Below, piece after piece: positions 21,436 through 51,041 of a stretch of 64,000 nt of DNA. Position 1 is the first letter of the stretch. Each line of letters begins with the position of its first letter. The DNA comes from Mobula birostris (taxonomy: Eukaryota). The position numbers and the translations under genes were made by a program. Location: the NCBI RefSeq assembly GCF_030028105.1, contig NC_092380.1:21911144-21975143 (forward strand), in the 5' to 3' direction. The notes beneath the pieces are model-generated. The model worked only from the letters and a program-made list of their open reading frames with translations, was not told the origin of the DNA and made no database searches.

Positions 21436-21530
21436 TTAGTCCCCATCCGAGCCGGAATCATCTTCTTGGTCCGAGAGATCGGGAACCGGGAATCGGAGAA
21501 TGGCAGCTACTCCGGTCAGCTGGCTGAGCT
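21436..21530 (-). CDS. pelo: pelo exon 13 (last coding exon)
   Basis: [31 protein letters not shown]; tctAG acceptor. Confidence 0.95.
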
Positions 21531-48500: not shown

Positions 48501-51041
48501 TGCTGCAAGCCCAATTCACGGCGGGGGAAGCTGCGTGGCCTCGGTTCTGGTGAGGACGAGACCTCAAGCCACGGTGTCGCCCGTTTGCACCCGCCAGGAG
48601 AGGGGAGTCTGTGTCGGTGCTGGCAGAGGTGTGGCACAGCGACCAAGCTGGCGTCAGTGCTGCCCTCCAGTGTTCGCTTGGCAGAAGACAATCTGTACTG
48701 TGTTCAATTGCAGACTGTTGCAACATTCACGGACTCAGGGACTTGGACCATATTTTTACTGCTAGCTTCTATGTGCTATACGTGCCTTGTGTTGTGTATG
48801 ACTGTTGGTACTTTGGCTCCAGACTAACCCTGTTTCATTTAGTTGGCTGTTTCATGGGTATTTGTGTATGGTTGAAAGACAATTAAACTTGAATTTGAGC
48901 CTCTTAAGTGTCCCTAATGTATTGGCCTCTACCACCATCCATGGGAGCACGTTCCATACCCTCAACACTCTCTGTGTAAAAACAAAACATACCACCTTAT
49001 ACCTTCCTCCAATCACCTTAAAGTTATGCCCTGTCCTATGAGCCCCTGACAGCCCGGAAAAAGGTCTCTGGCTGTCTGCTTAATCTATGATTCTTATCAC
49101 CCTATACACCTGCATCAATTTCGGCAGAGTCATGCCCACCTCCTCAGCACAGCCTCCCCTCACTCCCGGACGCTTTGCGCACCTGATGGTGGAAGCCCTC
49201 AAGCTGTCGTTCACGTTGAGGAGATTGTAGGTGTGCCACATGTCCTCAGCCTCCTCTGGCATCAGAGTCACCTGGCTAAAGGGGGGAAAGAAATTGGCTG
49301 TTACTGTCACACGTACCGAGGTACAGTTCAGGGCATCAACAGCTCACAGGATATATCCTGGTCTGAATACAGCGATGGAATCACGAAGAAGGCAGGCTGG
49401 CGGCCATACTTCATTAGGAGTCTGAGCAGATTCTGGAGCTCACCAAAGGCTCATCAAATGGGTGGTGGAGGGCATTCCAGCTGGCTGCATCTCCACCCCT
49501 ACGTTGGCTCCAGATCACAGGAACACAAGAGGCTGCAGAGGACTGTAGACTCAGCTGGATCCATCACCAGCACAAACAGGACACCACCATCGAGGACACC
49601 TCCAAGTAGTGCCTCAAGGAGGGATCCATTATCAAGGACTGTCACCATCTGGGACATCCTCTCTTCTCACTACCACCATCATGGTGGAGGTACAGCAGCC
49701 TGGAGACCCACACTCATCGTTTGAGGAACAGTCTTTGTTGTGTGTAGCTCTTCCTTGACTCTATTGCTCTACTGTGAATGCCTGCGTGAAAGCCAATCGC
49801 AGGGCAGTATATGGGGACCTTGATAATAAATTTAGTTTGAACTTTTGAGCTTCCTCCCCTCTGCCATCAGATTTCTGAATGGTCCATAACGACAGAGTAA
49901 CAGCTAGCGAGATGTACTTTCAGGCTTTCGTATCTCCTGCCCAGTGGGAGGGGGGAGAAGAGAGAATGCCCAGAGTGGGTGGGATCGTTGATTGTGCTGG
50001 CTGCTTTACTGAGGAGGGGAGGCTGGTTTTCATGGTGTGCTGAGTTGTGTCCGCGAATCCCTGAGCTGTTGCCATACCCAGCTCTGCCGCACCCTGACAG
50101 GATGCTTTCTGCGGTGCATTGCTAAAAATTGGTGAGGGCTGATAGCAAAAAATGTCAAATGTCTTTAGCCTCCTCAGGAAATGGAGGCATTGGTGTGTTT
50201 TTGTTTGGTTATGGCATCAACATGGTTGGATCCGGGGATGTTGTTGGTGATGTTCACTCGGGAACTTGAAGCTCCCTACACTCTCAGCTTCAGTGCCGTT
50301 GATGTGGACAAGAGCAAGAACATGTCCATCACCAATCTCCCCCTGGCTGGGGTCAAGAGGGAGGGAGCAGATAGTTTTGGGGGGGGAGTGAGGGGGCAGA
50401 GGAATCAGTGGGGAGAGCCTGGCAAAAATCAGAAGGGCCAGGGTCAAAATGCAGGCAAGACTGGGAACGAGGAAAACTGGAGGCCAGGGCTGGAAAAACT
50501 GGAAAGCTGAGCAGGGAAACCTGGAAGTGGGCTGTGGAAAATAGGAAGTGGGACAGTGGGAACTGGAAAGTAGGGCATGTGAAAACTGCGAAACCCAGGA
50601 CACAGGAGAAGGAAAGCGGGGGGGGGGTGTTGGGAGAGGGGCAAGTGGGTCAGGAGGGGTGAAACATGAAAACCGGAAGTGGGGCAACAGAAAACGTAGG
50701 AAAACCGGAAGCAGGATAGGTAAACCTGAAGCGGGGTAGGAAAATTCAGGGAAAATGGAAGTGGAGCAGGTAGAACCCAGGTAAACTGGGAAAACTGGAA
50801 GTGGGGCAGAAGGGATCCCCGGGAAAAACCTAAAGAGGGGGCAGGGAACCAGGGAGTATCTTCTGCCCGGTGGAGACTGTGGAACGTCATTCAGGGGAAA
50901 TTACACCACGCCGGACCGAGGGCGGAGGTCACTAGACCGATACAGCCACCACCCCCCCTTCCCAGCCCCACCCCGTCGCTCAGTAACCGCCGCGCCTCAC
51001 CCCGAGTTGTCCCGCTCGATCATTTTGCTGAGGAGCTTCAT
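21436..51041 (-). CDS. pelo: Protein pelota homolog (Dom34/eRF1-like ribosome rescue factor), spliced CDS of 13 exons, 1158 nt / 385 aa
   Basis: Exon lengths 41+93+151+91+164+61+162+47+74+72+75+32+95=1158, all GT-AG and phase-consistent. Hallmark motifs [49 protein letters not shown]. Confidence 0.97.
22054..22085 (-). CDS. pelo: pelo exon 12 (32-nt small exon)
   Basis: [10 protein letters not shown]; cacAG acceptor, gtgagt donor. Confidence 0.93.
22090..23410. repeat. ~1.3-kb polypurine/polypyrimidine tract with a ~190-bp internal duplication and a ~24-bp unit array
   Basis: Almost only G/A on +; 22271-22460 repeated at ~22460-22650; gagatggaggaggagagggaaggg units. Confidence 0.95.
24550..25260 (-). 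mobile_element. Rex1/Babar LINE 3' fragment, flanked by Penelope pLTR remnants (24215-24545, 25290-25560)
   Basis: ORF 24775-25236: LHFLRRLK...[20 protein letters not shown]...[15 protein letters not shown]. Confidence 0.85.
26340..28655 (+). mobile_element. Degraded CR1 LINE (ORF1 end, EN, RT pieces, 3' end) with an unrelated insert at ~27560-28060
   Basis: [38 protein letters not shown]. Confidence 0.8.
29296..29370 (-). CDS. pelo: pelo exon 11
   Basis: [25 protein letters not shown]; aacAG acceptor, gtgagg donor. Confidence 0.95.
29455..29775. repeat. ~52-bp minisatellite (cccctgggtcagacccacaccgggatcaccgtgcacagttcctgtctctgtat); same family at 12470-12625
   Basis: Tandem units visible; both arrays lie just upstream (in gene sense) of an acceptor. 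Confidence 0.85.
30835..30906 (-). CDS. pelo: pelo exon 10
   Basis: [24 protein letters not shown]; cccAG acceptor, gtgagt donor. Confidence 0.95.
31428..32488. mobile_element. Non-autonomous PIF/Harbinger-like DNA transposon (1061 bp)
   Basis: Perfect 37-bp TIR ggctatgtccacactacgccggataattttgaaaacg, 3-bp TSD aca, inserted in the 52-bp minisatellite. Confidence 0.85.
33515..33588 (-). CDS. pelo: pelo exon 9
   Basis: [25 protein letters not shown]; aacAG acceptor, gtaggt donor. Confidence 0.95.
34608..34654 (-). CDS. pelo: pelo exon 8
   Basis: [16 protein letters not shown]; ctcAG acceptor, gtgagg donor. Confidence 0.93.
35098..35867. mobile_element. hAT-type MITE hosting a Penelope-derived palindrome
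   Basis: Ends cactgttcccgctaag / gttaaagggaacgttg, 8-bp TSD aatgtgag/agtgtgag (7/8 match). Confidence 0.65.
35366..35811. mobile_element. Penelope-like element fragment with inverted duplication (RT motif piece plus pLTR)
   Basis: [13 protein letters not shown]...LRYIDNCIG (PLE RYIDD motif); 14-bp flanking direct repeat ctgctcagagccat (35352-35365 / 35812-35825). Confidence 0.85.
36323..36484 (-). CDS. pelo: pelo exon 7
   Basis: [22 protein letters not shown]...[16 protein letters not shown]; ctcAG acceptor, gtgagc donor. Confidence 0.96.
37062..37122 (-). CDS. pelo: pelo exon 6
   Basis: [20 protein letters not shown]; tctAG acceptor, gtgggt donor. Confidence 0.95.
37499..37662 (-). CDS. 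pelo: pelo exon 5
   Basis: [28 protein letters not shown]...[14 protein letters not shown]; tgcAG acceptor, gtgagg donor. Confidence 0.96.
37855..39545. mobile_element. Patchwork of Rex1/Babar (+) and CR1 (38290-38530 +; 39150-39545 -) 3' fragments
   Basis: [10 protein letters not shown]...RFRNSF remnants; [14 protein letters not shown]...[15 protein letters not shown]. Confidence 0.75.
39846..39983 (-). mobile_element. Penelope pLTR fragment with hammerhead motif
   Basis: Minus strand CTGACAA-agggtctcggccc-GAAA-CGTC-gaccg (core G>A consistent with CpG decay). Confidence 0.7.
40040..43450 (-). mobile_element. Long degraded Rex1/Babar LINE (EN + RT + 3' tail)
   Basis: LTVKC..FYLP.E...IILTAV.IPP endonuclease remnant; KFADNTTVV...[28 protein letters not shown]. 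Confidence 0.85.
40759..41060 (-). mobile_element. tRNA-derived SINE, second copy
   Basis: Same sequence family; flanked by direct repeat actctccact (40744-40753 / 41063-41072). Confidence 0.8.
44394..44484 (-). CDS. pelo: pelo exon 4
   Basis: [30 protein letters not shown]; cacAG acceptor, gtgagt donor. Confidence 0.96.
44565..46680 (+). mobile_element. Tc1-like DNA transposon (long-TIR type), transposase pseudogene at ~45490-46460
   Basis: TIRs (t)ggtgcctataaaaag / ctttttataggcactg, TA flanks; transposase remnants [10 protein letters not shown] and [14 protein letters not shown] with stops and frameshifts. Confidence 0.9.
44761..45277. mobile_element. pogo/Tigger-like MITE nested in the left TIR of the Tc1
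   Basis: Ends caggtgtcccc / gggggaaacctg, TA TSD on both sides; Tc1 TIR resumes afterwards. Confidence 0.8.
46685..47135. repeat. ~75-80-bp tandem repeat (ctggattagatcccagcctgtaa...gatctgttattctatatataaa)
   Basis: 4-5 degenerate units; a partial unit at 44540-44564 indicates the Tc1 inserted into this array. Confidence 0.7.
47184..47334 (-). CDS. pelo: pelo exon 3
   Basis: [50 protein letters not shown]; cccAG acceptor, gtgagt donor. Confidence 0.96.
49183..49275 (-). CDS. pelo: pelo exon 2
   Basis: [31 protein letters not shown]; tttAG acceptor, gtgcgc donor. Confidence 0.95.

Follow-up and report, generated by a model that had tools for sequence, protein, structure and literature searches.

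Pelota, the Dom34/pelota partner of HBS1L, splits stalled ribosomes. Its gene has 13 coding exons beside a Kremen-type gene and a claudin in the ray Mobula birostris, whereas in human and mouse it has two coding exons and is embedded in ITGA1 (for the embedding, PMC2425467 and PMC6096637, available portions). Which of these arrangements is the older one, and how did the other arise? The original prediction took the ray gene for the ancestral locus and the ITGA1-nested gene for a retrocopy that had replaced it in mammals.

The pelota gene of Mobula birostris

The gene lies on the minus strand of the window (the whole 64-kb stretch of DNA analysed here) and runs from the ATG at 51041 down to the end of the TAA at 21436. 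As predicted, its exons, joined from the genomic sequence, form a complete gene: all 12 introns are GT-AG, the CDS of 1158 nt, free of internal stops, encodes 385 aa and ends in a stop codon, and the product is 100% identical to the RefSeq Mobula "protein pelota homolog" (P0185). The coding exons and their evidence are as follows.

51001..51041, minus strand: exon 1, ATG at 51041, intron 1 in phase 2 (CDS assembly; junction in 2/4 runs)
49183..49275, minus strand: exon 2 (CDS assembly, genome search, reads)
47184..47334, minus strand: exon 3 (CDS assembly, genome search, reads)
44394..44484, minus strand: exon 4 (CDS assembly, genome search, reads)
37499..37662, minus strand: exon 5 (CDS assembly, genome searches)
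37062..37122, minus strand: exon 6 (CDS assembly, genome search)
36323..36484, minus strand: exon 7, with unbroken CAG|GTT (Q242|V243) at 36362-36357, the amniote intron site (CDS assembly, 5LZW match)
34608..34654, minus strand: exon 8 (CDS assembly)
33515..33588, minus strand: exon 9 (CDS assembly, genome search)
30835..30906, minus strand: exon 10 (CDS assembly, genome search)
29296..29370, minus strand: exon 11 (CDS assembly, genome search)
22054..22085, minus strand: exon 12 (CDS assembly)
21436..21530, minus strand: exon 13 with TAA (CDS assembly, genome search)

The introns follow CDS nt 41, 134, 285, 376, 540, 601, 763, 810, 884, 956, 1031 and 1063, with phases 2, 2, 0, 1, 0, 1, 1, 0, 2, 2, 2 and 1, respectively. 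The protein is a full-length pelota homologue with N, M and C domains, of the same type as the Pelota/Dom34 family (PF26356, PF03464, PF03465), P0185 and human pelota (PDB 5LZW), which exon 7 matches with an E-value of 1.7e-23. It is about 81% identical to amniote PELO, and its identity and family suggest that it acts in ribosome rescue with HBS1L. The motif KFLQVH, starting at aa 239, is encoded by AAG TTC CTA CAG GTT CAC, and the stretch CTA CAG GTT CAC is indeed unbroken inside exon 7 of the joined CDS, as had been noted.

Junction reads, proposed as a check for all 12 introns, were examined for introns 1-3 in four runs from four studies (presumed RNA). Intron 1 was joined in contigs of 2/4 runs and introns 2 and 3 in contigs of 4/4, so that for these three introns the gene is transcribed and spliced. 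The start region is CpG-rich as predicted, albeit short, by the criteria of GC>0.5 and CpG o/e>0.6 in 200-bp windows, and it contains two putative motifs that we take to be YY1-like (51129-51138) and CRE-like (51093-51100).

50801..51280, no strand: short CpG-rich promoter/first-exon region (window scan for GC and CpG)
21225..21230, minus strand: candidate polyadenylation hexamer, the sole one within 1.9 kb past the stop (sequence scan)

The locus itself is ordinary and already annotated; its worth is that of an outgroup that polarises the history of PELO.

Genomic neighbourhood and copy number

Gene order on the ray contig (C13) is PKMYT1(+), PAQR(-), Kremen(-), pelota(-), claudin(+), the two genes next to pelota being located in the window at:

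8290..12455, minus strand: Kremen-type gene with Kringle, WSC and CUB exons, downstream of pelota (domain scans)
58707..59369, plus strand: divergent classic-type claudin ORF, single exon, upstream of pelota (domain scan of ORFs)

Given its PAQR and PKMYT1 neighbours, we infer that the Kremen-type gene is KREMEN2, and the Kremen-PAQR-PKMYT1 block corresponds to the human 16p13.3 block. The claudin lies on the side of this block opposite to what we take to be the human side, which points to a rearrangement of the locus in one lineage or another. The lists for human chr16:2.8-3.4 Mb and cattle chr25, in the available portions of PMC5345335 and PMC4928802, include KREMEN2, PAQR4, PKMYT1 and CLDN9/6 and no PELO. 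Pfam scans of 204 ORFs flanking the ray gene (126/142 candidates to its left and 78/78 to its right) detected no integrin domain, in agreement with the earlier statement that no integrin sequence is present there.

A gar pelota query against the ray genome gave 10 matches, all of them on exons of the 13-exon gene (14/14 candidates scored), and a bird-type C-terminal PELO ORF gave 4/4 matches at the same gene. An intronless copy would be expected to score far higher. Ray pelota is single copy: three genome searches turned up the 13-exon gene and neither a second pelota nor a pseudogene. ITGA1-ITGA2-MOCS2 are located apart from it, on contig C4, so in the ray the locus type that holds the amniote copy (C4, ITGA1) differs from that of the parental type (C13, Kremen block). 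The suggested search for a second pelota near ray ITGA1 returned no remnant in 400 kb (C4:40.08-40.48 Mb; tblastn, blastn and HMM), the same HMM recovering 12/13 exons in the window. Exon 1 of ITGA1 was absent from the CpG-rich candidates checked, which are repeats, hence ITGA1 intron 1 may run past the region searched.

Age of the ray introns

Intron positions were mapped on other pelota records, mostly partial or mis-spliced gene models, by counting breaks in the alignment that lie no more than 2 aa from one of the ray introns. Against a chance level of about 15%, and with rows that are not independent, such breaks amounted to 12/14 in chondrichthyans, 21/53 in ray-finned fish, 24/27 in amphibians (covering introns 1 and 6-12 only), 2/5 in hagfish, 16/28 in invertebrates, 7/16 in plants, fungi and others, and just 2/43 in amniotes, where 15/43 fell at 242-248. 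In the DNA of a non-vertebrate-like metagenome locus (L088), GT-AG introns occupy 180/phase 0 as well as 354/phase 1, the positions of ray introns 5 and 12. Among the candidate introns of the metagenome loci, 5/7 match no ray intron (one of the three in L088 and those in L113, L082, L109 and L096), and a gap in L091 gave no clean intron. These loci come from the 80 best-scoring of 479 relatives, the majority of which are intronless or transcript contigs (70/80 with a single ungapped match), and no amniote or named invertebrate locus is among them. The only protein labelled 'Lampetra planeri' (P0089) was rejected as lamprey pelota, since it groups with fugu (100/97) and is likely a teleost contaminant.

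The L088 introns and the break counts in other groups rule out lineage-specific gains in the ray, the sharing with invertebrates having been the point of the mapping originally suggested. They support an intron-rich pelota as the ancestral form, with introns that seem common to other vertebrates, invertebrates and plants; the 13-exon type appears to persist also in bony fish and amphibians.

The two-exon PELO of amniotes

The structure of amniote PELO was read from bird-type, squamate, cat, squirrel and mammal-like records. The amniote DNA ORFs cover M1-Q242 and V243-end and span all 12 ray intron positions unbroken. After Q242 the first ORFs enter unrelated and mutually divergent sequence (P0242, P0391, P0502-P0506, cat P0390, P0522), bird-type ORFs P0176-P0184 begin at V243 and continue unbroken to the stop, and the lizard and cobra models (P0508, P0509) rejoin at V243. 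The sole coding intron is therefore at 242|243, which bears out the lone intron near codon 242 of the original prediction, and it coincides with 0/12 ray introns, as the retrocopy reading had needed. The cat, squirrel and mammal-like records suggest the same two-exon structure for human. Bird-type, mammal-type and cat records lack all parental coding introns, and the amniote records behind the 43 breaks included none with old introns. The link of the intron-poor gene to ITGA1, proposed earlier and described for human and mouse, extends to a pheasant model (P0388) that joins PELO 1-272 to ITGA1 exon 2. The mammalian timing of the switch did not hold: bird-type ORFs and squamate models are two-exon as well, so a mammal-only origin is ruled out.

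The same end state, a new locus without the old introns, would result if the entire gene had been transferred as DNA to ITGA1 intron 1 and had there shed its 12 introns, through cDNA recombination or stepwise, which would make amniote PELO a relocated gene rather than a retrocopy. However, no amniote record keeps an old intron, the ORFs cross all 12 positions with 2/43 breaks near them, and two rare events are needed instead of the one of retroposition; to our knowledge, intron loss on a 12-intron scale is rare in vertebrates. We therefore regard such a move as unlikely.

In the tree, amniote PELO forms one clade (100/99) inside the bony-vertebrate group (99/97), apart from the chondrichthyans. 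This placement argues against two old pelota copies, stemming for instance from whole-genome duplication, one by KREMEN2 and one in ITGA1, that were reciprocally lost. The separate contigs of ray pelota and ITGA1 would agree with such a hidden paralogy, but no second copy or remnant was found in the ray genome and it would not account for the 12 missing introns, hence we give it hardly any credence.

The intron at codons 242/243

Retroposition followed by intron gain presupposes an uninterrupted site in the outgroups, and a proto-splice site is found in the ray, where CAG|GTT is unbroken. The site is also unbroken in Drosophila-cluster DNA ORFs from about residue 14 to 254 (P0527, P0529), and breaks at 242|243 number 0/27 in amphibians and 0/14 in chondrichthyans, absence of breaks being weak evidence. 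Two models could speak for an intron that is old in metazoans, disappeared from rays, fish and flies, and came down to amniotes either by way of a retrocopy that was spliced only in part or from an ancestor not sampled here. The Orbicella (coral) isoform model P0432 leaves out 215-242 and restarts at residue 243, as would be seen if the amniote site already carried an intron or if an internal acceptor were used, and in a copepod model (P0443) a gap opens at 240. Set against the unbroken ray and Drosophila-cluster ORFs, an old intron seems very unlikely to us. The amniote intron is inserted between codons with no coding loss (385 aa on both sides), hence it differs from a case of intronization.

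A proposed history of PELO

Taken together, we consider it probable that the single, spliced 13-exon pelota of the ray, with its old introns, stands at the ancestral locus, and that amniote PELO is a retrocopy in ITGA1 intron 1 whose parent was lost and which gained an intron at 242|243. The ray gene is the orthologue of that presumably lost parent and not the parent itself; in this respect, and in the amniote-wide extent of the switch, the history departs from the original prediction, of which the ancestral state of the intron-rich form stands. A fully spliced pelota mRNA would have been retroposed on the amniote stem and inserted in ITGA1 intron 1, where the copy may have captured the promoter at the ITGA1 5' end; the parent would have been lost from the 16p13.3-equivalent block, and the retrocopy would then have gained one intron at CAG|GT, codons 242/243. 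Retroposition and intron gain are what we infer from the compared sequences. Remnants of a poly-A tail or of target-site duplications are not expected to survive for about 300 My.

Orphan retrogenes that replaced their parents have been described by Ciomborowska 2013 (PMC3548309), by Carelli 2016 (PMC4772013) for MARS2, RNF113A and TRMT12, and for amphioxus SYCP1 (PMC5803294), as far as the available portions of these papers go. Amniote PELO resembles such genes in being intron-poor at a new locus, with a multi-exon parent in outgroups, the parent apparently missing and a housekeeping role kept. Unlike the mammalian cases, it would be older (amniote stem), is nested in a host intron and has acquired its coding intron at a site of its own, a feature that would conceal it from single-exon screens. 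Hoh and Salzberg 2025 (PMC12124190, available portions) reported intron gains in the human lineage, 342 of them in Table S1, and introns in retrogenes are treated in PMC3565874 and PMC3002245 (excerpts); like those gains, the PELO intron occurs in a single vertebrate subtree and seems to be missing elsewhere. The name PELO occurs 0 times in PMC3548309 and PMC4772013 (main texts) and is absent from the main text of PMC12124190, as available, although the supplementary gene lists and Table S1 may include it. The literature searched, key supplements lying outside that search, nowhere calls PELO a retrogene or describes it as an orphan retrogene with later intron gain.

On balance we favour the view that PELO, an essential gene that serves ribosome rescue and is currently a target for cancer drugs, is a hitherto unrecognised orphan retrogene of the amniote stem, which replaced the 13-exon parent by KREMEN2, sits in ITGA1 and gained its CAG|GT intron before the mammal-sauropsid split. 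Jointly with this reading, and with the same measured preference, amniote-stem PELO would be one of the oldest datable vertebrate retrogene replacements with coding-intron gain.

Significance

PELO dependence is under study in 9p21-deleted cancers (PMC11864980, available portions), and the history proposed here leaves that biology as is. If true, it would provide a proto-splice site at which the gain of a coding intron, rare in vertebrates, can be dated, and would suggest that old orphan retrogenes escape single-exon screens once they have gained introns. It would further mean that in the amniote ancestor a universally needed housekeeping gene exchanged both its locus and its regulatory surroundings, and that PELO has since come to depend on an integrin gene's 5' end, where variants have been linked to the expression of both ITGA1 and PELO (PMC3402303, available portions).

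Structure of the ray pelota gene

The window holds a pelota gene on the minus strand, whose 13 exons join into a CDS of 1158 nt (385 aa plus TAA). No internal stop is present and all introns are GT-AG (376-7210 bp), bearing out the complete 385-aa gene of the original prediction. The product is 100% identical to RefSeq Mobula pelota (P0185), and the gene is therefore annotated already.

Features of the window
51041 to 21436 (-): pelota, 13 exons, introns after CDS nt 41, 134, 285, 376, 540, 601, 763, 810, 884, 956, 1031 and 1063
50801-51280: short CpG-rich region spanning the pelota start
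51136 (-): out-of-frame ATG within a YY1-like motif, 95 nt 5' of the pelota ATG, its frame overlapping the start
58707-59369 (+): single-exon claudin, rather divergent from claudin-4/9 (best PDB E 1.3e-27), head-to-head with pelota at about 7.7 kb
1-366 and 62593-63999 (-): ORFs for LINE-type reverse transcriptase, one per window end, the right one (469 aa) continuing off the window

In contigs from four public runs (four studies, presumably RNA), intron 1 is spliced at the predicted sites in two runs and introns 2 and 3 in all four. Exon 7 encodes KFLQVH uninterrupted, reading through CAG/GTT at Q242/V243 as had been claimed. Two RefSeq Mobula isoforms (P0186, P0187) diverge after exon 11 and have alternative 3' ends, which makes retention or alternative splicing of the 7.2-kb intron 11 possible. 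In introns 6, 8, 9, 10, 11 and 12, many splice acceptors have long polypyrimidine tracts and tandem arrays of 51-60 bp close by; the Kremen gene has similar arrays. For the ATG at 51136 to form an overlapping uORF, transcription would have to begin upstream of it.

Age of the introns

Exon borders in other taxa were marked by breaks in truncated, exon-skipping or intron-retaining protein records, a break no more than 2 aa from a ray intron being scored as shared (chance about 15%). Among hand-assigned groups of non-independent rows, excluding plain starts at internal Met, non-amniote rows without a taxon name and most of 150 such representatives, shared breaks amounted to 12/14 in chondrichthyans (2 rows being isoforms from one genus), 21/53 in ray-finned fishes, 24/27 in amphibians (introns 1, 6-12), 2/5 in hagfish, 16/28 in invertebrates (introns 3, 4, 6-10, 12) and 7/16 in plants, fungi and others (introns 3, 5, 8, 10). 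For instance, the X. tropicalis record stops at 270 and those of octopus, mussel and leafhopper at 254; residues 295-319 are skipped in Bufo, and an insertion at 95 occurs in Vigna and Spirogloea. Direct DNA proof of common positions comes from a metagenome locus (L088), whose introns at 180/0 and 354/1 are ray introns 5 and 12; none of five other introns mapped in metagenome loci coincides with a ray intron. This recurrence, by breaks from chondrichthyans to plants and fungi and by DNA in L088, argues against lineage-specific gain. Three metagenome contigs of 10-16 kb (L044, L045, L055) carry a fully intronless pelota with 64-70% identity to the ray protein, for which we propose independent intron loss or retrocopies.

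Copy number and genomic context

When full-length gar pelota was searched against the 4.0-Gb ray genome, all 10 matches fell on window exons (14/14 candidates scored), and searches with TIGR00111 and with the bird-type C-terminal ORF were likewise confined to them. Pelota is flanked by a Kremen-type gene and the claudin, with a PAQR gene and PKMYT1 farther along the contig (C13). ITGA1, a second I-domain integrin (taken as ITGA2) and MOCS2 are located on another contig (C4, 40.38-40.81 Mb). The suggested search for a second pelo near itga1 found no remnant by tblastn, blastn or HMM in 400 kb (C4 40.08-40.48 Mb), 300 kb of which lie upstream of ITGA1 exon 2; the HMM recovers 12/13 pelota exons in the window. 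ITGA1 exon 1 was sought in the ITGA1 region and not found. In the published gene list for human chr16:2.8-3.4 Mb, KREMEN2, PAQR4, PKMYT1, CLDN9 and CLDN6 occur without PELO, as in the cattle equivalent (PMC5345335, PMC4928802). Retrovirus-like/LTR-element fragments (integrase, env coat, gag, RNase H, zinc knuckle; L131:6973-9445, L132:5812-6312, L119:1210-1464, L114:6223-8032) lie in the PAQR-Kremen interval and past the claudin, and a Gla-domain exon (L120:9705-9908, +) about 70 kb past the window's right end.

Amniote PELO and its origin

Published descriptions place human and mouse PELO inside intron 1 of ITGA1 (PMC6096637, PMC2425467). Of 43 amniote breaks, just 2 are close to a ray intron and 15 fall at 242-248. 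Several records (P0242, P0391, P0502-P0506, and cat P0390 and P0522) run from M1 to Q242 and then into short tails, each beginning with V and unrelated to the others, as expected from GT-donor read-through. Nine bird-type ORFs (P0176-P0184) run from V243 to the stop without a break, two with acceptor-like residues upstream, and the models from horned lizard and cobra resume at V243. Together these records indicate that the 12 old introns are absent and that a single coding intron at 242/243, not among the ray's 12, is common to mammals, birds and squamates. The intron-poor form and distinct intron position of the original prediction thus stand; its restriction to mammals does not. A coral model also resumes at residue 243, as an old rather than gained intron would have it, a reading to which we give little credence. 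Relocation of pelota as DNA with wholesale intron loss would end in the same intron-poor gene, and is improbable though somewhat less so. The five amniote rows group as a single clade inside the bony vertebrates in a tree of 26 proteins, and hidden paralogy is very improbable. P0089, labelled Lampetra planeri, clusters with fugu (100/97) and is likely teleost contamination or a mislabel. A pheasant UniRef entry named 'Integrin subunit alpha 1' (P0388, 1360 aa) is a chimeric model fusing PELO 1-272 to ITGA1 exon 2 onward, which may reflect either an artefact of annotation or a true read-through splice.

The simplest history, which we consider quite probable, has four inferred steps: spliced pelota mRNA would have been reverse-transcribed into ITGA1 intron 1 in the amniote stem, the copy would have gained broad expression, the parent adjoining KREMEN2 would have been lost, and an intron would have been inserted at the pre-existing CAG/GT. 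Retrogene replacement is an established class (PMC3548309, PMC4772013, PMC5803294), with 10 orphan families reported in PMC4772013. PELO is absent from the main texts of PMC3548309 and PMC4772013 and from that of the human intron-gain survey (Hoh and Salzberg, 2025; PMC12124190); no statement of its retro-origin was found in the literature searched, a scope that stops short of the relevant supplements and the primary papers on PELO gene structure. Amniote PELO would be a further case within this known class. The ray pelota is a real, ordinary ancestral gene, and it supports amniote-wide PELO as a probable orphan retrogene with intron gain, likely unreported so far.
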